A stretch of DNA of 64,000 nt from Patescibacteria group bacterium (lineage in GTDB: Bacteria > Patescibacteriota > Minisyncoccia > Moranbacterales > UBA1568). The stretch lies in contig JBBTWT010000003.1 in NCBI GenBank assembly GCA_038078615.1, positions 2,563 through 66,562 on the forward strand, written 5' to 3'. Made by a program: the position numbers and the translations under genes. Under the pieces are notes generated by a model. That model was not told the origin of the DNA. It made no database searches and worked only from the letters and a program-made list of their open reading frames with translations. Of the stretch, positions 16,655 to 60,746 are shown piece by piece; positions within the stretch are counted from its first letter, which is position 1; the number at the start of each line of letters is the position of its first letter.

Positions 16655-16835
16655 CTTTCCATGAAACTTCCATTTTCTTCCCATGCCCTCCGCCGAACAT
16701 ACTCGACGGAAGTCGCCGAGGAAAGCGCTGTCCGGCTAACTAAGCCACGCGTCACGCGCATTTCCTAGCGGCACTTCCGCCGCCTATGTGACCGGCGTAG
16801 GCCAAAAGGAAAGAAAATGGAAGTTTCAGGGAAAA
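16655..16835. repeat. ~180-nt imperfect foldback (rod-like hairpin) in the thpR-priA divergent spacer
   Basis: Outer arms TTTCCATGAAACTTCCATTTTCTT (16655-16678) and AAGAAAATGGAAGTTTCAGGGAAA (16811-16834) pair over 24 bp with one mismatch. Inner GC-rich arms remain partly complementary (CGCCG, CGGAAGT, GCCG, AGG, GCGC) down to an apical GGCT-AACTA-AGCC hairpin. Confidence 0.8.
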
Positions 16836-30798: not shown

Positions 30799-31752
30799 AT
30801 GAGGCTTATCGTCAATCTCCCGGCTTTCAACGAAGAGGAGAAAATCAGCGGCACCATTCAAAAAATTCCGCGTCACATCGATGGCATCGACGAAGTGCTC
30901 ACACAGGTGATCGATGACGGATCGCAGGACAAGACGGTCGCTGTCGCCAAGGCTGCCGGCGCGGATTTCGTGTATTCGAACGGCGTCAATCGTGGTGTCG
31001 GCAAGACATTCCGCGTCGCCGTGGAGCGCGCGCTCGAGAACGGCGCCGACATCATGGTGAATATCGATGCCGACGGGCAGTTCGATCCTCTCGACATCGG
31101 AAAACTCATCCGTCCGATCCTCGACGGGCAGGCCGATATGGTGAGCGCCGACCGTTTCTCCCTGCGTACGGCGAAAAATATCCCGTGGATCAAGGACGTG
31201 CTCAACCGGTTCGCCGCGAACATCATCGGCCGCTTCATGAACGCGTCGATTTCCGATCTCACCTGCGGTTTCCGCGCCTACAACCGTGAGACGATGCTGC
31301 GTCTCAATCTCCCTGGCGACTACACCTACACGCAGGAAGTGATCATCGACGCGCTCGGAAAAAACCTGAAAGTATCGTGGATACCGGTCGCGGTGACGTA
31401 TTTCGAAGGCCGCAAATCGCGCGTCGTCAAAAGCATCGCGAGCTACGTCAACAACAGTTTCCGCATCATCCTGAAAGCGGTGCGCGATGTCCGTCCGATG
31501 AAGTTTTTCGGCATTCCGGGACTCTGCCTGATACTGCTCGCCCTCATAGTCTTCATCGGCTTCCTCTGCTTCTACTTCCAGGATTTCAAGATCTCCCCGT
31601 ATCGCAATTACCTCCTGTTTTCGGCGGTGACATTCCTCATCGGCCTGCAGTTTGTCGTCTTCGCGCTCATCGCCGATATGATCAAGTCCAACCGCAAGCT
31701 CACCGAGGATCTGATGTATCTCGTGAAAAAGGAGAAATATTCTAAAAAATAA
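30799..31752 (+). CDS. GT2 polyprenyl-phosphate glycosyltransferase (DPM1/GtrB/ArnC-like) with C-terminal TMs
   Basis: VNLPAFNEEEKI, VIDDGSQDKT, NIDADGQ, plus two C-terminal TM helices. Confidence 0.8.
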   Translation: MRLIVNLPAFNEEEKISGTIQKIPRHIDGIDEVLTQVIDDGSQDKTVAVAKAAGADFVYSNGVNRGVGKTFRVAVERALENGADIMVNIDADGQFDPLDIGKLIRPILDGQADMVSADRFSLRTAKNIPWIKDVLNRFAANIIGRFMNASISDLTCGFRAYNRETMLRLNLPGDYTYTQEVIIDALGKNLKVSWIPVAVTYFEGRKSRVVKSIASYVNNSFRIILKAVRDVRPMKFFGIPGLCLILLALIVFIGFLCFYFQDFKISPYRNYLLFSAVTFLIGLQFVVFALIADMIKSNRKLTEDLMYLVKKEKYSKK

Positions 31753-31883
31753 CCAATCACCAAATTCCAAGATACAAGGAATAATCAATGACCAATTTCC
31801 GAATAGTTAATTCATGCTTGACTTTTGGTGATTGGAAATTGAAATTTCTTGGTGATTGGCACTTGGTTATTGGTACTTATTTT
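31751..31883. repeat. intercistronic inverted heptamer-motif array (CCAATCACC ... GGTGATTGG x2, GGTTATTGG)
   Basis: CCAATCACCAAA (31753-31764) is the exact complement of TTTGGTGATTGG (31824-31835). The A/C-rich form follows the stop codon and the G/T-rich form precedes the next ATG. Confidence 0.8.
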
Positions 31884-32963
31884 ATGCGCATCTTGTTTAT
31901 ATCTAGGGCTTACCCACCGATCATAGGCGGCATCGAGAACCAGAATCGCGCGCTGTCCGTGTGGCTCGGACGACTCGCTTCCGTCACGACGATCGCCAAC
32001 CGTCACGGCAAGAAGATGCTGCCGCTGTTTCTTCCGTACGCGACGGCAAGGGCTCTGGTTACCGCCTATCGCTATGATGTCGTACTGCTCGGCGACGGGG
32101 TGCTCGCCATCGTCGGATTTCTCATCAAGCTCCTCTACCCGAAAAAACCGGTGGTGGCAGTCGTGCATGGACTCGATCTGATGTACGGGAATGCCCTCTA
32201 TCAGGCATTCTGGATGAAGCGCTTTCTCCCTTCGCTCGATATGCTGATCGCCGTAAGCGGCGAAACCCGTGCCGCCGCCATCGCGCAAAATATCCCGGAA
32301 TGGAAGATCGCCGTCATCAGGAACGGCGTCGAAACGGAGGCGTTCCGAGGAGAGTATGAGAGGACGGATCTGGAAAAGCTACTCCATGAAAACCTTGCCG
32401 GGAAGTGCGTGCTTCTGACCACCGGACGCCTCGCCAGACGCAAGGGAGCCGCCTGGTTCATCCGCGCCGTGCTGCCGCGGTTGCCGCAGACGATAGTCTA
32501 TGTTCTCGCCGGCGCCGGACCGGAAGAAGAGAATATCAGAACCGCCGTGCAGAAGACAGGAGTCAACAACCAGGTAAGAATACTTGGCCATGTCACTGAC
32601 GCAGAACGCAATCTCCTCTTGCATACGGCAGATATTTTCATCCAACCGAACATCCGTGTCCCCGGAGACATGGAGGGGTTCGGCATCGCGGTCATCGAAG
32701 CCGCCGCCTGCAAACGGCCGGTCGTCGCCTCGAATCTGGAGGGACTGAAGGAAGCCATCTGCCATGATGAGAACGGCGTCCTCGTCGAGCCGGAAAATCC
32801 CGAGGCTTTTGCAAAAGCCATCCTCTCGCTCATCGAAAATGCGGATGAACGTTGGGCATTGGGAGAACGGGCGCTCCGATATACCGAAGAACATTATCAT
32901 TGGAATATCATCGCGCGACTCTATATCGAGACCCTGAACAGACTCATCGAGAAAACCAGATAA
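31884..32963 (+). CDS. glycosyltransferase family 4
   Basis: MRILFISRAYPP... and DMEGFGIAVIEAAACKRPVVASNLEGLKEAI. The 32 upstream codons of ORF 31788 are translated repeat sequence and are excluded. Confidence 0.8.
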   Translation: MRILFISRAYPPIIGGIENQNRALSVWLGRLASVTTIANRHGKKMLPLFLPYATARALVTAYRYDVVLLGDGVLAIVGFLIKLLYPKKPVVAVVHGLDLMYGNALYQAFWMKRFLPSLDMLIAVSGETRAAAIAQNIPEWKIAVIRNGVETEAFRGEYERTDLEKLLHENLAGKCVLLTTGRLARRKGAAWFIRAVLPRLPQTIVYVLAGAGPEEENIRTAVQKTGVNNQVRILGHVTDAERNLLLHTADIFIQPNIRVPGDMEGFGIAVIEAAACKRPVVASNLEGLKEAICHDENGVLVEPENPEAFAKAILSLIENADERWALGERALRYTEEHYHWNIIARLYIETLNRLIEKTR

Positions 32964-34957: not shown

Positions 34958-34987
34958 ACACTTTTTACGCAATTGCGTAAAAAGTGT
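34958..34987. promoter_or_regulatory. 30-nt perfect palindrome, copy 1 (core CACTTTTTACGCAATTGCGTAAAAAGTG)
   Basis: Perfect dyad. The identical 28-nt core recurs at 52537-52564. Ends 24 nt before the ATG at 35011. Confidence 0.8.
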
Positions 34988-39687: not shown

Positions 39688-39707
39688 AAAAATGGAGCTC
39701 CATTTTT
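39688..39707. repeat. 20-nt perfect palindrome AAAAATGGAGCTCCATTTTT just downstream of the 39717 gene
   Basis: Direct reading. AT-rich, so only marginally significant on its own. Confidence 0.4.
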
Positions 39708-39716
39708 TGAAAATTA

Positions 39717-40031
39717 TCAAATACCACCAAATTTTTTTCCTTTTTTTGCTTCCCATTCAGCATCAGCAGCCACTATTTCTTCCTGCGTTATGCCTAAATC
39801 TAAACATTTTTGCCTAAGTGTCAGAACACGTTCCCTTACGCTCCTTTGTAATTCTTCTTTCGCCTCCCCAATTTTTTCTCGAGGTATGTCAGCTGATATT
39901 CGAACATTTCTGACTCCTCCGAGCACTTTTTCTTCAAACTGAAGAGCAAGATCTTCATCTCCAGCTATCATTAGCTGTTCTAACGCCGTCCGTTTTAACT
40001 CCTCCTGTGAAGGCCATTCGAATCGATTCAT
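39717..40031 (-). CDS. hypothetical protein (104 aa, helical, acidic)
   Basis: ATG at 40031 (MNRFEWPSQEELKRTALEQL...). Lies in an AT-rich islet. No family recognised. Confidence 0.4.
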   Translation of the reverse strand: MNRFEWPSQEELKRTALEQLMIAGDEDLALQFEEKVLGGVRNVRISADIPREKIGEAKEELQRSVRERVLTLRQKCLDLGITQEEIVAADAEWEAKKGKKFGGI

Positions 40032-40156: not shown

Positions 40157-40783
40157 ATGAGTATGAAATTCATCACTTTTTCCGGAGTCGACGGGTCGGG
40201 AAAGTCAACTCAACTCGCGCTCTTGCGGGAAAAACTGGAACGCGAGAACTGGAACGTCGCGTATTTTCACGCGATCGATTTCTCGCTGGTAAACCAGCTC
40301 GCAAGAACCAAGAACCAAAATCCAATCACCAAAAATACTCAGGATCAGGATACTGGAAAATCGAAAACATCGGCATCATGGTGTACTATCTTCCTACGGA
40401 AAATGTTCCTCCTCATCGATCTGATACGGTTTCGTTTTTATTTGAAACGGCTGAAACGCGAGAATTGCGACTATCTCCTCTCCGATCGCTATTTCTACGA
40501 CTCCATCGTCAACATCGAGTACCTCCAATCCGCCGATTTCGCTTTCATCACTCATCACTCATCACTCATCACTCATCCGGACACGGCCCTGTATCTCGAT
40601 ATTTCCCCGGACACTATCATGTCGCGCGAGCGCGCCCCGGAACAAGGCATCGAGTACCTCCGTGCCAAACAGGGACTCTTTCAACAGAAAATCAAAGACT
40701 GGAATATGATCGTCATCGACGCACACGGAAAAAAAGAAGATATTTTCAATTCCATCCTGAAAGCTATAAGCCAAAAGCTGTAA
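40157..40783 (+). CDS. thymidylate kinase-like P-loop kinase with two in-frame repeat tracts
   Basis: P-loop FSGVDGSGKST, SDRYFYDS, PDTALYLDISPDTIMSR are colinear with the dTMP kinase family. The NMP-binding REPGG block is not recognisable. Confidence 0.6.
   Translation: MSMKFITFSGVDGSGKSTQLALLREKLERENWNVAYFHAIDFSLVNQLARTKNQNPITKNTQDQDTGKSKTSASWCTIFLRKMFLLIDLIRFRFYLKRLKRENCDYLLSDRYFYDSIVNIEYLQSADFAFITHHSSLITHPDTALYLDISPDTIMSRERAPEQGIEYLRAKQGLFQQKIKDWNMIVIDAHGKKEDIFNSILKAISQKL
40304..40366. repeat. heptamer-phased tract AGAACCA AGAACCA AAATCCA ATCACCA AAAATAC TCAGGAT CAGGATA ... inside the Tmk-like CDS
   Basis: Direct reading. Encodes TKNQNPITKNTQDQDTGKSK and contains the CCAATCACC motif. 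Confidence 0.8.
40545..40577. repeat. heptanucleotide tandem repeat (TCATCAC) x4.7 inside the Tmk-like CDS
   Basis: Direct reading. Encodes ITHHSSL-ITH. Confidence 0.95.
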
Positions 40784-52532: not shown

Positions 52533-52568
52533 ATATCACTTTTTACGCAATTGCGTAAAAAGTGATAT
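52533..52568. promoter_or_regulatory. 36-nt perfect palindrome, copy 2 (same 28-nt core as 34959-34986)
   Basis: ATATCACTTTTTACGCAATTGCGTAAAAAGTGATAT. Ends 46 nt upstream of the minus-strand ATG at 52487. Confidence 0.8.
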
Positions 52569-52612: not shown

Positions 52613-52658
52613 ATAAAAAAATATATCATAATTCCACGGTCGTGGAATTATGATATAT
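52613..52658 (-). terminator. terminator with an 18-bp perfect AT-rich stem overlapping the GT4 stop codon
   Basis: ATATATCATAATTCCACG-GT-CGTGGAATTATGATATAT (52621-52658). On the minus RNA it is followed by UUUUUU. Confidence 0.7.
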
Positions 52659-53796
52659 TCCTGTATACCTCTACATATTGTCTGGCGATGTTTTTCCAGC
52701 TCATCTTCTCGGCGCGTGTGCGGCTCGCCTCGCCGAAGCGCTGTCGCAGTGCCGGATCAGCGATAAGCCGTGCCAGCTTTTCCGCGATATCCTCGGCCGA
52801 TCTCATCTTCACGATAAATCCATTCTCCCCGTCCGCGACCAATTCTTTGCTTCCGCCGGTATCAGTCGCGATGATCGGCAAACCTGACGCGAGCGCCTCG
52901 AGCAGAGCGTTGCTCATCCCCTCGTTCTGCGATGGCAAAACGAACACGCTCGCTTCCTGATAATACGGAGCGGTCTCTTCGCGCGGGATGCGCCCGAGAA
53001 ACATCACGTGACTTTCGAGTTTCATTACCTTGACCATATTTTCCAGCCGCTCCTTGTCATCGCCATCTCCGAGAATTTTCAATCGTATCTGAGGAGATTT
53101 CGCGACGAGCATAGAGACAGCTTCGATGAGATATTGGACTCCCTTCCGCATGGTGACGCGCGAGGCGCCGAGCGTGATGATGAATGCATCCTCCGGACGC
53201 GCTTCCGGCCGAGGACTGAAGTGATTGCTATCGATACCGTTGTGGATGACATCGATCGGCTGCTCCCGATTCGTCCGCAGAGCCAGCTCCCTCAGTCCCT
53301 CGCTGTTCGCAACCACGAACGCCGAATGCTTCCAGACGAACCTGATGATCGGTTTCAAAAAAATATATAAGAAAGAAAACCGCTCGCTGTATCCGGGCAC
53401 GTCCGCCCCGCGCAAAGAGACGATATACGGAATTTTGAACCGGCGGCCGAGAAGATAGGCTTGGACACCGCAGGGAACGCTGAAAAACGCGTGGATAGCG
53501 TCAAAATCGCCTGGAGAGAGGAGTTTCCTGGCAAAACGGTATCCTGCCCAGGAATACCGCAAAACGTCAAAAATAGACTGAAAATGAAGCGTCTGGGGGC
53601 TCTTGCCGATCGGCAGGCTATGGACGAAGACTTGGTCCCCTACCGTGGCCTCATGCGCCTTGTCATCCGCGGACGATGTCACCAGATGCACCTCGAGATC
53701 GGGCACCTGCGCATACTCCTTGAGCAGGTATTCCGTCGCATTCCCCGCTCCGCCCCCGAGCGGCGGATATTCATAATTGAGAAACAGGATTTTCAT
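52648..53796 (-). CDS. glycosyltransferase family 4
   Basis: MKILFLNYEYPPLGGGAGN and PSQNEGMSNALLEALASGLPIIATDTGGSKELV. Confidence 0.85.
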   Translation of the reverse strand: MKILFLNYEYPPLGGGAGNATEYLLKEYAQVPDLEVHLVTSSADDKAHEATVGDQVFVHSLPIGKSPQTLHFQSIFDVLRYSWAGYRFARKLLSPGDFDAIHAFFSVPCGVQAYLLGRRFKIPYIVSLRGADVPGYSERFSFLYIFLKPIIRFVWKHSAFVVANSEGLRELALRTNREQPIDVIHNGIDSNHFSPRPEARPEDAFIITLGASRVTMRKGVQYLIEAVSMLVAKSPQIRLKILGDGDDKERLENMVKVMKLESHVMFLGRIPREETAPYYQEASVFVLPSQNEGMSNALLEALASGLPIIATDTGGSKELVADGENGFIVKMRSAEDIAEKLARLIADPALRQRFGEASRTRAEKMSWKNIARQYVEVYRNIS

Positions 53797-58234: not shown

Positions 58235-59614
58235 CTATACTCCTATCCCGAAATAGGTGAATCCTTCTTTTTCCGCTTCCTGGCGGTCGAAGATGTTGCG
58301 GCCGTCGACGATGACGCGCTGCTTCATCCGCGCGGCAAGCTCCGGATACTCCGTCGTACGGAATTCATCCCACTCGGTCATAATCAAAAGCGCATCCGCG
58401 CCTTTCACGGCATCATACGCATTGAGAGCATACTTCACCCGCTTGTCCGGGAACATCGCTTTGAAGCTCTCAATCGCCACCGGATCGAAGGCTCGCACCG
58501 AGGCCCCCGCCTTGAGCAGCGCTTCGATGACATAGAACGCCGGCGCCTCGCGTACATCGTCGGTGCGCGGTTTGAACGACAGTCCCCAGACCGCTATCGT
58601 CTTGCCCTTCAGGCTCTTGAAATGTTTCTTGAGAAAGGCGATGGGACGGAGCTTCTGCATATCATTCACCTTGTCGGCCGCTTCGACGATACTGAACTTC
58701 GAACCGTATTCCTTGCCCGTCTGCATCAGCGCCTGCACGTCCTTGGGGAAGCACGATCCGCCGTACCCGATACCGGCATAGAGGAAGCGCGAGCCGATAC
58801 GGCTGTCCGCGCCCATACCGCGCGCCACTTCTTTCACGTTGGCGCCGGACTTCTCGCAGAAATTCGCGATCTCGTTGATGAAGGTGATCTTGGTCGCGAG
58901 AAAGGCATTGGCCGCGTACTTGATGAGCTCCGCGCTGCGCACGTCCGTGATGATCACCGGTCGTCCCGCGCGGGCGATGGGACGATAGATCTTTTCCATC
59001 AGTTCCTTGGCGCGATCCGACGACACGCCCAAGACGACACGGTCCGGATTGAGGAAGTCCTTGATCGCCGCGCCCTCGCGCAGGAATTCCGGATTGGAAA
59101 CAATATCGAATTCGCCCCCGCCCAAATCACTCTGTGAACCGTGGCGGGCAAGTTTCCCCTTACTCGCGTGCATGATGATATCGCGGCACTTGTCAGCCGT
59201 CCCGACCGGTACCGTCGATTTATTGACGAGAATCTTGTAGTTTACCCCATGAACCGCCTTGCCAGGTTCCGCGGGGCCGTTCAAATTTTTGCCGAACGTC
59301 TCCGCTACCGCATACACATACTGCATATCCGCCTTGCCGGTCTTCTTGTCCTCCGGCGTGCCGACCGCGCTGAACACGACATCGGCCTCGCGGATAGCCT
59401 GCCCCACGGACGCCGTGAACGACAGACGTCCCTCTTTCACATTCTTCTCCACCAGTTCATCTAAGCCCAGCTCGTAGATCGGCATGATACCTTTCTTCAG
59501 TTTGGCTATCTTCTGTTTGTCGATATCCGCGCAGATGACCGTATGTCCGAGTTCCGCCATACACGTCCCCGTCACGAGCCCGACATACCCCGTCCCAATA
59601 AAAGTTAATTTCAT
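58235..59614 (-). CDS. ugd: UDP-glucose 6-dehydrogenase
   Basis: MKLTFIGTGYVGLVTG, GIGYGGSCFPKDV catalytic Cys, WGLSFKPRTDDVREAP. ATG at 59614 preferred; the 8 upstream codons are repeat sequence. Confidence 0.9.
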   Translation of the reverse strand: MKLTFIGTGYVGLVTGTCMAELGHTVICADIDKQKIAKLKKGIMPIYELGLDELVEKNVKEGRLSFTASVGQAIREADVVFSAVGTPEDKKTGKADMQYVYAVAETFGKNLNGPAEPGKAVHGVNYKILVNKSTVPVGTADKCRDIIMHASKGKLARHGSQSDLGGGEFDIVSNPEFLREGAAIKDFLNPDRVVLGVSSDRAKELMEKIYRPIARAGRPVIITDVRSAELIKYAANAFLATKITFINEIANFCEKSGANVKEVARGMGADSRIGSRFLYAGIGYGGSCFPKDVQALMQTGKEYGSKFSIVEAADKVNDMQKLRPIAFLKKHFKSLKGKTIAVWGLSFKPRTDDVREAPAFYVIEALLKAGASVRAFDPVAIESFKAMFPDKRVKYALNAYDAVKGADALLIMTEWDEFRTTEYPELAARMKQRVIVDGRNIFDRQEAEKEGFTYFGIGV

Positions 59615-59640
59615 ACTTTTATAATCATCAATTATCAAAA

Positions 59641-59780
59641 TCCAATAACCAGAAAATTACCAATCACTAAATCATTTATTTTGAAGTTTCGTGATTATCG
59701 ACGAAAGAATCTTTTTTAATTCAAGTGTCCTATCCTCAAGATCGAATTTCTTTTTTGGTAATTGATCACTGGTCATTGGA
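59641..59780. mobile_element. MITE-like cassette: imperfect terminal inverted repeats built from CCAATnACC motifs enclosing a truncated ORF
   Basis: Left TCCAATAACCAGAAAATTACCAA (59641-59663) versus the rc of right TTGGTAATTGATCACTGGTCATTGGA (59755-59780): 9 + 12 nt match with one mismatch and a 3-nt indel. Further GGTCATTGG/GATGATTGG units extend to 59812. Confidence 0.6.
59672..59758 (-). pseudogene. 28-codon remnant resembling the N-terminus of four-helix-bundle (23S rRNA intervening-sequence type) proteins
   Basis: Minus-strand frame reads PKKKFDLEDRTLELKKILSSIITKLQNK*. The FDLE-[ED]-RT-x-x-[FL] opening matches my recollection of that family. No start codon and far too short to be intact. 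Confidence 0.4.
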
Positions 59781-59804
59781 ATTTCCTTGATGATTGGAGT
59801 TTGG

Positions 59805-60746
59805 TCATTGGTTCCTTACCGTTCGTACGGAGTAATTCATCCGGCCGCGCTGACGATAGTATGTCTTCACCGCGATATCCACGAGGATGCCGAAGATGAA
59901 CAGCTGCACCCCGACGAGTATGAAGAGCGTCCCGACGAGCGGCCAGATGCGTTCGGCGAGCGACGCGCCGTAGAATATCTTCTCCACGAACATCCACACG
60001 AGAATCGACGAGCCGACCAGACCGAGGAGCAGTCCCGTCCCGCCGAAAAGATGTATCGCACGATACGAGTACTTGCGCCAGAACCAGATGAAGAGCATAT
60101 CGACGAATCCCTTGATGGCGCGTTTCCAGTTGTATTTCGTCTGGCCGTGGATGCGCGGGTGATGAGATACCTTGACCTCCGCCACGCGGAAACCGTCGAG
60201 CGCGAGCAAGGCCGGCATGAAGCGGTGCATCTCGCCGAAGAGATCCATATCCCGGAAACATTCCCTGCGATACGCCTTCAGGCTGCAGCCGGAATCATGG
60301 ATGCCGTCCTTCACGAGCAGCTTGCGAAGCAGATTCGCCCCGCGCGAGAAGAAACGCTTCATCAGCGAATCCTGACGCTTGTGCCGCCAGCCGGACACCA
60401 CGTCGTAGCCCTCGTTCATTTTTTCGAGCAAGAGCGGGATATCAGCCGGATCGTTCTGCAGATCACCGTCGAGCGTCACGACGATCTCGCCTCGCGCCGC
60501 CTTGATCCCCGCGTCGAATGCCGCCGTCTGGCCGAAATTCTTACGGAACCTGATCAATGTGAGCGGCGACAGGCCGACAGTCTCTTCGACCGTCTTGTCA
60601 CCCGAGCCATCATCCACGAAAACAATTTCAAAAGACCTACCGATCTTCATGACAGCCTCGTGAATCCTCCGATGCAATTCCTTCACATTCCCCTCCTCGT
60701 TGTACAGCGGGACAACGACGGATAAATAAGGTTGATTTTCCAGCAT
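59805..60746 (-). CDS. GT2 polyprenyl-phosphate glycosyltransferase (ArnC/GtrB-like) with two C-terminal TMs
   Basis: LSVVVPLYNEEGN, VFVDDGSGDKT, TLDGDLQNDP, plus two C-terminal TM helices. Confidence 0.85.
   Translation of the reverse strand: MLENQPYLSVVVPLYNEEGNVKELHRRIHEAVMKIGRSFEIVFVDDGSGDKTVEETVGLSPLTLIRFRKNFGQTAAFDAGIKAARGEIVVTLDGDLQNDPADIPLLLEKMNEGYDVVSGWRHKRQDSLMKRFFSRGANLLRKLLVKDGIHDSGCSLKAYRRECFRDMDLFGEMHRFMPALLALDGFRVAEVKVSHHPRIHGQTKYNWKRAIKGFVDMLFIWFWRKYSYRAIHLFGGTGLLLGLVGSSILVWMFVEKIFYGASLAERIWPLVGTLFILVGVQLFIFGILVDIAVKTYYRQRGRMNYSVRTVRNQ

Follow-up and report, generated by a model that had tools for sequence, protein, structure and literature searches.

A probable internally deleted four-helix-bundle cassette in the spacer upstream of ugd in a Patescibacteria genome

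The elements closest to the one described here are the intervening sequences (IVS) of 23S rRNA genes and the hairpins formed by STRR (short tandemly repeated repetitive) heptanucleotides of heterocystous cyanobacteria. Our subject is a 190-nt spacer, copy B (59615-59804, minus strand), between a family 2 glycosyltransferase (GT2) gene and ugd in a 64,000-nt stretch of DNA from a Patescibacteria group bacterium (contig JBBTWT010000003.1); the whole stretch is called the window. In Coxiella, the 23S rRNA IVS, found in helix 45, is a selfish element of 428 nt that carries a decaying S23p open reading frame (ORF); inverted repeats at its termini pair into a 28-bp stem that is cut by RNase III, and older proposals hold that it is or was mobile (PMC4990558). 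ORFs of PF05635, a family of four-helix-bundle proteins, also lie within 16S and 23S rRNA insertions of the candidate phyla radiation (CPR), and these insertions sit at helix tips or bases (PMC11270868). PF05635 genes have further been noticed, without explanation, between genes of cas operons (PMC3936711). The STRR of cyanobacteria consist of 7-bp repeats that form intergenic hairpins, for example between hupS and hupL, with a function then unexplained (PMC2670836).

We read copy B, with a probability of about 0.8, as the decayed and internally deleted copy of a promoter-less, hairpin-flanked four-helix-bundle cassette of about 0.5 kb and of mobile origin. Such cassettes were known before mainly from inside rRNA genes.

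The remnant gene and its paired arms

Copy B contains a minus-strand ORF of 34 codons plus stop (59672-59776), MTSDQLPKKKFDLEDRTLELKKILSSIITKLQNK, which falls into an N-terminal piece (59720-59776; MTSDQLPKKKFDLEDRTLE), a C-terminal piece (59675-59719; LKKILSSIITKLQNK), and the stop codon (59672-59674). A previous, sequence-only reading of this DNA had the frame right (...IPMTSDQLPKKKFDLEDRTLELKKILSSIITKLQNK up to the stop; the ORF starts at ATG) and took it for the N-terminal helix of a four-helix-bundle protein. The family holds, at 22.1 bits for the whole peptide against a subfamily profile (best of 5000 shuffles, 8.5 bits), but the restriction to the N terminus does not: the ORF joins the N terminus of such a protein to its C terminus after an internal deletion.

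The subfamily profile was built from 120 close homologues, all PF05635, of the protein encoded by an intact cassette in another Patescibacteria genome (L070). That protein has 1303 homologue clusters, the best 120 of which are 60-72% identical to it, and the profile consensus runs MTNKQKKKKKFDLEDRTLEFAKKIIRLCKELPNN...ECTQLRNILSAIIKKVEKK. In the alignment, residues 1-19 of the ORF cover profile positions 1-19 with 15.0 bits; residues 19-34 cover positions 108-123, where the profile ends, with 13.1 bits, and the original stop comes next. Among 20,618 six-frame fragments drawn from the window and 121 loci, the ORF is the sole non-family fragment with an E value below 1 (3.9e-4); the next scores 7.9 bits. 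The similarity to a PF05635 subfamily is thus collinear, as descent predicts. About 88 internal codons are gone (profile positions ~20-107), codons 1-19, the last 15-16, and the stop being kept. The sequence-only reading had proposed the PF05635 and TIGR02436 profiles as a check, and neither the 28-, the 34-, nor the 43-residue version of the peptide matched them, because 19 + 15 residues are too short for generic profiles. The ORF does not reach the curated cut-offs of either family across the ~105-residue domain. With no generic match and the core codons missing, it is, as judged from its sequence, a pseudogene remnant of a PF05635/TIGR02436 four-helix-bundle gene and not a member of the family.

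Intact versions of the same arrangement exist elsewhere. Scanning one genome per species with a left-arm pattern, CCAATNACCAAANTCCAA, gave at least 120 stretches. In two Patescibacteria loci (L070 and L029), the same arms surround a full ORF of 118-124 residues that starts M..KF(D/N)LEDRTL(E/D)F and scores above both the PF05635 and TIGR02436 cut-offs. Five further intact subfamily genes, found by exact protein look-up, all have arms of the same kind. The ATG of the remnant ORF (59776-59774) lies inside a CCAATGACC unit at 59771-59779; likewise, in L070, L029, L122, L126, L128, and L132, the last four with precomputed PF05635 matches, the same arms are present and the ATG falls within the innermost CCAATGACC unit. 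Arm and gene therefore form one unit. The expectation that intact family members would be flanked by the same motifs was thus borne out in these six loci, which belong to other Patescibacteria and further genomes outside the window. Inverted flanks of this kind are specific to these genes: when each flank was compared with the reverse complement of the other, z was at least 3.9 in 12 of 14 cassettes; control windows of the same geometry gave a mean z of 0.35, with 1% above 4. The gene-bearing relatives with the same arms encode the PF05635 protein only, and no transposase family was found in them.

Intermediate forms are seen as well. The CCAATNA hairpins of L120 (Aminicenantia) and L116 (a deltaproteobacterium) are of intermediate length and keep N- and C-terminal pieces of the gene, which in L116 are in different frames. 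These loci bear on whether the 34-codon ORF might be a living small-protein or leader-peptide gene kept after the deletion. The deletion preserved the frame, the original ATG, and the original stop, and copy B, L120, and L116 break the gene at similar places. Even so, we find a functional gene very improbable, since the conserved core motifs of the family (GANYxEA, RKEAKET) are all missing, the ATG is buried in a predicted stem with no Shine-Dalgarno sequence before it, the pieces in L116 have lost their common frame, a word-indexed search found no homologous 34-residue protein, and NCBI annotates nothing here.

The four-helix-bundle proteins have no defence-system membership in PADLOC, where GxxExxY proteins, encountered again below, weakly resemble Cas4. 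In L132 (965-2709), on a contig attributed to a Helarchaeota metagenome-assembled genome (MAG), the CCAATNA-type four-helix-bundle gene has as neighbours an integrase of phage type, present as an N-terminal fragment, and an ORF of 198 residues that matches PF05635 weakly.

In copy B, the remnant is enclosed by two inverted arrays. The left arm, 5′ in the direction of transcription (59755-59813, minus), is made of about eight degenerate heptamers, CCAATGA CCAAACT CCAATCA TCAAGGA(AAT) TCCAATGA CCAGTGA TCAATTA CCAA, and the TGA stop codon of the GT2 gene (59805-59807) falls within the first of them. The right arm (59623-59671, minus) is an inverted heptamer array, ttagTGATTGG TAATTTT CTGGTTA TTGGATT TTGATAA TTGATGA TT, which forms the stem together with the left arm and stops 8 nt short of the ugd ATG. 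The inverted ends had been recognized earlier, and 59641-59663 (TCCAATAACCAGAAAATTACCAA) is indeed an imperfect reverse complement of 59755-59780 (TTGGTAATTGATCACTGGTCATTGGA). The CCAATnACC motif proposed for them is present, but the true unit is a degenerate heptamer, CCAATNA/TNATTGG, so that the 9-mer spans one heptamer and the start of the next. Inverted pairs are found at 59637-59652/59769-59784 (16 nt, 88%), 59655-59672/59746-59763 (18 nt, 78%), and 59627-59640/59753-59766 (14 nt, 93%), with an overall 39-nt pair, 59629-59667/59772-59810, at 72%.

Several statistics support the arms. The spacer RNA folds at -46.1 kcal/mol (z = -3.2; none of 200 shuffles was equally stable), and in the minimum free energy (MFE) structure 59623-59631 pair with 59787-59795 and 59641-59652 with 59769-59780. 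A hidden Markov model (HMM) of the arms matches copy B at 59775-59812 (E = 1.7e-4), and the left end of copy B is ~75% identical over ~110 nt to that of the intact cassette L070. In autocorrelation, all four arms of copy B and of a second hairpin, copy A, peak at lag 7 (0.52-0.64), at a value that 0 of 500 shuffles reached for three arms and 20 of 500 for the fourth; in copy B, the left arm gives 0.57 (0/500) and the right arm 0.52.

Copy A (31750-31876, plus, 127 nt) is a gene-less hairpin of the same family, with a left arm (31750-31800), a 22-nt loop (31801-31822), and a right arm (31823-31876). It stands between a GT2 gene (30799-31752) and a GT4-type gene (ATG at 31885) and aligns with copy B over the left arm; each of the two copies begins at the stop codon of a GT2 gene. 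Its fold (MFE -44.7 kcal/mol, z = -6.0) is more significant than that of copy B, its arm HMM match has E = 6e-4, and its lag-7 autocorrelations are 0.64 and 0.55. The suggestion that phased tracts elsewhere in the window might be solo ends of a cassette is thus upheld for this tract, and an arm-profile search of the window found no copy beyond A and B. The window contains the motif CCAATNACC 8 times, where 1.5 occurrences are expected and 100 shuffles gave at most 5; seven of the eight are confined to the two spacers (31753-31873 and 59642-59811). On our reading, these two odd AT-rich spacers would be dead mobile DNA and not regulators of the polysaccharide genes.

The eighth CCAATNACC match, at 40322-40330 (CCAATCACC), is coding and lies inside an ORF at 40157-40783. 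The region around it (40300-40350) is a low-complexity stretch, aaccaagaaccaaaatccaatcaccaaaaatactcagg, which may be an arm fragment absorbed into the gene.

Empty and filled junctions, and hairpins elsewhere

Searching metagenomes with the GT2 protein yielded 80 orthologous loci (53-74% identity); ugd follows the GT2 gene in 35 of them. The junction between them is an empty 4-29 nt in 13 of the 35, the closest relatives included. In another 13 it holds 51-127 nt of unrelated AT-rich sequence, several cases looking like ordinary promoters, and in one it measures 203 nt. Six junctions of 425-519 nt carry one small gene co-directional with the operon, and two of more than 900 nt (L179 and L208, the latter with an epimerase-like ORF) carry other sequence. 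The comparison of empty with filled sites that the sequence-only reading had called for thus finds the junction in both states, although the empty-site relatives (GT2 at most 74% identical) are too diverged to set it to the base.

Of the six small genes, four belong to TIGR02436 (four-helix bundle, three subtypes) and two to TIGR04256 (GxxExxY, PD-(D/E)XK fold). Each lies between inverted arrays with a unit that differs by locus, for example CTAAATM, GCATGGG/CATAAAA, AATCCACTAAT, or ATTCGAATCTACGAAT. Cargo and arms that differ in this way at a single junction can hardly be a matter of inheritance and indicate repeated independent insertions. With GxxExxY, cassettes of this architecture carry a second cargo family; its two genes at this junction, in two related genomes (L151:3442-3928 and L168:3433-3911), have inverted arrays of ~8-nt units.

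One might still take the spacer for native regulatory DNA, its CCAAT-type arrays being an operator or attenuator of ugd bound by a host regulator and its ORF arising by chance. Its position is immediately upstream of ugd, each of the two window copies comes after a GT2 gene in a polysaccharide locus, and repeated phased motifs are typical of the sites of multimeric regulators. The empty sites come close to refuting this idea: 13 orthologous loci manage with 4-29 nt, and the motif is found in none of the 80. In addition, the neighbours of the same hairpin in at least eight phyla are unrelated genes, both ends of the ORF match the four-helix-bundle profile far better than shuffles do, and we found no promoter-like site in the spacer.

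The hairpins in those other phyla required a control, because in 596 Gb the 16 specified bases of the left-arm pattern should match ~280 times at random. Of the 125 genome matches listed, 37 have an exact inverted GGTNATTGG no more than 300 nt away, against ~2 by chance, and of 42 viral-contig matches none has; this stricter count replaced a fold-based partner criterion whose false-positive rate on viral contigs was ~20%. Judged more loosely, about half of the genome matches listed are true hairpins, 60-230 nt long. Phages do not appear as vectors, with no true hairpin among 43 pattern matches in viral contigs, and the plasmid collection gave no match to the CCAATNA hairpin. The hosts belong to at least eight phyla and include Patescibacteria, Desulfobacterota (Deltaproteobacteria), Planctomycetota, Nitrospirota, Omnitrophota, Verrucomicrobiota, Bacteroidota, Elusimicrobiota, Aminicenantia, and two archaeal MAGs. 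The hairpins are AT-rich even on contigs of 60-66% GC.

Within genomes, these hairpins behave as dispersed repeats, because within-genome copies are more alike and one pair has nothing but the repeat in common. This pair, on a complete deltaproteobacterial chromosome (CP070770; L054:3150-3363 and L066:6156-6366), is a 214-nt repeat with 94% identity at positions 2 Mb apart with unrelated flanks. Mean identity is 0.82 within genomes versus 0.63 between genomes, a contrast that is understated because several of the "between" pairs belong to one Planctomycetia MAG; this MAG, at 60-66% GC, has at least 9 copies. Mobile origin, as claimed at the outset, is thus supported from three sides: the empty and filled junction, near-identical solo hairpins at unrelated loci, and the gene-less copy A. 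The orientation of solo hairpins relative to neighbouring genes is mixed (18 -,-; 17 +,+; 16 convergent; 7 divergent) and is uninformative because the element is quasi-palindromic and the pattern can match either arm.

In L054/L066, the CCAATNA hairpin is nested inside outer arms of AAATCCTAA-type units. Small GC-rich palindromes (for example GCCTGCCTGC...GCAGGCAGG and GTCATTCCTGCGGAAGCAGGAATCC) occur in the loop or right arm of CCAATNA hairpins at L013 (~560-700), L056, L057, L113, and L115, an arrangement suggesting that further small elements land preferentially in hairpins.

Such observations also fit a view in which the hairpin came first. An STRR- or REP-like hairpin (REP, repetitive extragenic palindrome), self-spreading or maintained by the host, for example as an mRNA stabilizer or processing site, would be primary and the genes would be passengers with a preference for inserting into its loop; copy B would then be a hairpin that once took up a gene, and copy A one that never held any. 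Of ~75 verified CCAATNA hairpins, ~70 are gene-less and 60-150 nt long, hairpins nest in hairpins and accept palindromes in loops or arms, and in one deltaproteobacterial MAG, VGRY01, at least four CCAATNA hairpins stand solo, whereas the arms of its four-helix-bundle gene (L106) are different. The rRNA insertions at helix tips or bases (PMC11270868) would also agree. We nevertheless consider this order of events unlikely. The empty GT2-ugd junction of 4-29 nt has no hairpin, whereas in every filled one the gene comes with arms that have a unit of their own; in the CCAATNA subfamily, the arm array includes the start codon and the first codons of the gene; and copy B, L116, and L120 keep both gene ends, as loop deletion predicts.

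A number of points weigh against our own reading of copy B as a decayed cassette. The homology of its ORF rests on the subfamily profile, because generic searches gave nothing: a Pfam and NCBIfam scan with the 28-, 34-, and 43-residue peptides returned no hit at E ≤ 10, and a word-indexed protein search with the 43-residue frame returned no candidate. The arm repeats themselves encode some of the residues (MT..Q) behind the N-terminal score. The 64-kb window has no intact PF05635 gene, and the absence of CCAATNA arms from all 80 orthologous loci means that an intact ancestral cassette at this site is inferred, not seen. No direct repeat indicating target-site duplication is evident at the ends of copies A and B, L054/L066, or the six junction cassettes. 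Most of the ~70 CCAATNA hairpins examined have no trace of a gene, and many may have spread as hairpins and never held one. In an RNAalifold analysis of the stem, 18 pairs, almost all invariant CCAA/TTGG, gave a covariation term of +1.1; this is neutral on RNA structure, since near-invariant paired blocks make covariation uninformative.

Taking copy B as a decayed cassette, we imagine that the intact element entered an originally very short GT2-ugd spacer in the orientation of the operon. Later loss of the ~88 codons would have left the 34-codon ORF without the conserved family core, and further deletion of the same kind may yield gene-less hairpins such as copy A. The cassette would be co-transcribed with GT2 and ugd by read-through; cassettes are co-directional with their neighbours in 6 of 6 cases at this junction and in most others (L128 is an exception). 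The arms would pair into a long imperfect stem within the polycistronic mRNA, and by analogy with rRNA IVS and hairpin-type mobile elements this stem is likely a substrate for RNase III or an mRNA-stability element. The effect of copy B on its host is, by the same analogy, probably close to neutral, and the element is probably inert at this locus. As to mobility, the cassettes have no recognizable transposase or recombinase and no reverse transcriptase nearby, and the unit that spreads is arms plus gene, or arms alone. Our best guess would be copying via a hairpin or single-strand intermediate, mobilized in trans, for which a nucleic-acid-binding, Avd-like four-helix-bundle protein could serve as the element's own cofactor.

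Surroundings in the window

The genes on both sides of copy B are on the minus strand: GT2 (MEK9151122, 59805-60746) upstream and ugd, a UDP-glucose/GDP-mannose dehydrogenase gene (MEK9151121, 58235-59614, ATG at 59614), downstream. Because the two accessions are numbered consecutively, nothing is annotated in the spacer, and the NCBI annotation has no gene between them. The spacer is AT-rich in a genome of ~52% GC. It is base-for-base the same in an independent Logan assembly of run ERR3858122 and is therefore no assembly artefact. An intrinsic terminator or promoter was rejected as the identity of the spacer after a search for such sites, which found neither promoter-like nor terminator-like sequence. 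Rfam identified no rRNA in the window, and against Rfam 15 the hairpin had no match at gathering or E-value thresholds, giving chance-level microRNA and small-RNA matches only.

Other features of the window stand apart from the cassettes. At 16656-16834, a divergent spacer holds a 180-nt rod-like hairpin with 27-nt arms that are 93% complementary and a GC-rich interior (MFE -91.8 kcal/mol, z = -8.9); it has no Rfam match at gathering or at E ≤ 1 and is a candidate for a so far undescribed structured RNA, possibly a rod of the 6S type. A perfect 28-nt palindrome, CACTTTTTACGCAATTGCGTAAAAAGTG, occurs twice at gene ends (~34958-34985 and ~52537-52564) and could be a bidirectional terminator or a protein-binding site common to the two loci. 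About 50 nt past the second of these, at 52613-52666, lies an AT-rich palindrome (ATATATCATAATTCCACG/CGTGGAATTATGATATAT) with 26-nt arms at 88% complementarity. Finally, a small minus-strand ORF (MNRFEWPSQEELKRTALEQL...) is found at 39700-40030, in an AT-rich island between 39511 and 40157.

Relation to known elements

Cassettes of this architecture are also present in cultured strains. A tblastn search of a plasmid collection returned 31 records with genes annotated as "four helix bundle protein", and in all six strains examined, from four phyla, inverted heptamer arrays flank PF05635 genes: (GTCGGAG/A)n ... (CTCCGAC)n in Nostoc punctiforme pNPUN01, (GTAATTC)4(GGAATTT)6 ... (ACGAATT)4 in Dolichospermum, AATCCCC/AATCGTA in Planktothrix, GGAAAGN/CTCTCCG in Treponema saccharophilum, GATGAAG/TTCATCA in Chlorohelix, and (TAGTGAT)16 ... 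ATCACTA in Bernardetia. The 7-nt unit thus stays constant across unrelated arm sequences. The Nostoc plasmids of strains C057 and UHCC 0926 have no four-helix-bundle gene upstream of xisH; because ~230 nt of other sequence take its place, this junction is not a clean empty site.

On the plasmids of Dolichospermum (L259), Chlorohelix (L261), and Planktothrix (L262), the four-helix-bundle cassettes lie between helicase and DNA methylase genes, in defence-type operons. One hypothetical gene intervenes in L259, and the Planktothrix pair is annotated as DISARM DrmD and BREX PglX.

One can envision a broader generalization, which we put forward tentatively and at somewhat less than even odds: PF05635 and TIGR04256 genes would be cargo or mobility factor of one widespread class of transposase-less cassettes that are bounded by inverted short-unit arrays, colonize transcribed spacers and RNA helices (mRNA and rRNA) across most bacterial phyla, and decay into solo AT-rich hairpins. 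The evidence links three puzzles that were described separately, namely rRNA IVS with S23p ORFs, stray four-helix-bundle genes in operons (cas, DISARM/BREX, polysaccharide), and STRR hairpins. If this is true, STRR, unexplained since 1990, and classical rRNA IVS would be two faces of one element, and the constant 7-nt unit would possibly point to RNA-templated or slippage-based building or recognition of the arms. Annotators could then recognize and mask the element, which may shape how operons are built and mRNAs processed in CPR and cyanobacteria. Few uncharacterized small-protein families of uncultivated bacteria are as abundant as PF05635/TIGR02436, of which the 1303 clusters above represent one subfamily, and the question of function becomes testable: do the four-helix-bundle proteins bind or mobilize their own heptamer arms? 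Nostoc punctiforme and Dolichospermum, which carry perfect cassette copies, are tractable hosts for such work. This broader pattern is of more interest than the probably inert copy at the GT2-ugd locus. In the full-text literature covered, with most subscription journals outside it, we found no paper that joins IVS, stray PF05635 genes, and STRR, and an earlier description is possible.

Several known classes were considered for copy B and set aside. A CRISPR array was rejected on account of units of 7 nt and no spacers, an integron attC site on account of inverted repeats that flank the ORF instead of following it, and a riboswitch or attenuator on account of the absence of the sequence from orthologous loci.

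bAvd, which assists diversity-generating retroelements as their accessory protein, is also a member of this four-helix-bundle superfamily and is reportedly a nucleic-acid-binding pentamer that works with reverse transcriptase (Alayyoubi et al., 2013). Two cassette proteins match NF033474 (DivGenRetAVD) weakly, below the cut-off. Unlike bAvd genes, the cassette genes stand alone: none of the cassettes examined has a reverse transcriptase, a template repeat, or a variable repeat close by.

REP sequences and bacterial interspersed mosaic elements (BIME) likewise are intergenic, palindromic, multi-copy hairpins at gene ends, and REPs are mobilized in trans by REP-associated tyrosine transposases (RAYT), which are IS200/IS605-like. 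The palindrome of a REP measures 20-40 nt, its 5′ tetranucleotide is conserved, and it has a cognate RAYT gene in the genome, whereas the window arms are ~50-nt arrays without REP consensus; reading the window and the other loci brought no IS200/IS605-like gene to notice, although no dedicated search for one was made.

Closer are the hairpin-type miniature inverted-repeat transposable elements (MITEs), such as Correia/NEMIS of Neisseria, the enterobacterial repetitive intergenic consensus/intergenic repeat units (ERIC/IRU), RUP, and cyanobacterial Nezha. These too are short, non-autonomous, multi-copy, and intergenic, have terminal inverted repeats, are co-transcribed and folded in mRNA, and arise from longer elements through internal deletion; Correia elements are said to be RNase III substrates (De Gregorio et al.). 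The "MITE-like" label of the sequence-only reading is to be taken as an analogy. Terminal inverted repeats, small size (190 nt for copy B, 127 nt for copy A), lack of a transposase (the 34-codon remnant is the sole ORF), and multiple copies (two in the window, the L054/L066 pair at 94%, at least 9 in the Planctomycetia MAG) are all found. On the other side, no target-site duplication was evident at the ends compared, and no transposase-encoding master copy with the same ends was found: the gene-bearing relative encodes a four-helix-bundle protein. Their arms are tandem heptamers, and the same arm sequence recurs across phyla.

The window arms are of the STRR type, being tandem 7-nt units that are non-coding and capable of forming a hairpin, and one STRR unit was reportedly given by Mazel et al. 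in 1990 as TTGGTCA, which is also the window heptamer. STRR further occur inside the RNase P RNA gene, as the title of Vioque (1997) has it; they are said to lie within one helix of that RNA. In Nostoc, Dolichospermum, and Planktothrix, the four-helix-bundle genes stand between perfect inverted heptamer arrays; the window arrays, unlike STRR, are degenerate and belong to a Patescibacteria genome. To our knowledge, STRR have been described as repeats only, neither as paired arms of PF05635 genes nor outside cyanobacteria.

With regard to rRNA IVS, copy B differs first in location, lying in the intercistronic spacer of a protein-coding operon and not in an rRNA helix. Its arms are heptamer arrays, whereas the IVS has a unique 28-bp stem; excision by RNase III is known for the IVS, whereas the window cassette is known from sequence alone; and the GT2-ugd junction in relatives also takes cassettes with the unrelated GxxExxY cargo. 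There are several likenesses to the IVS of Leptospira, Coxiella burnetii, and CPR bacteria all the same. In both, complementary ends form a long stem (fold z = -3.2 for copy B and -6.0 for copy A) around a gene of the same family in the loop, the element is AT-rich relative to its host, and its sporadic distribution suggests horizontal transfer. In both, moreover, the ORF decays and ORF-less versions exist, and the IVS has been described as selfish.

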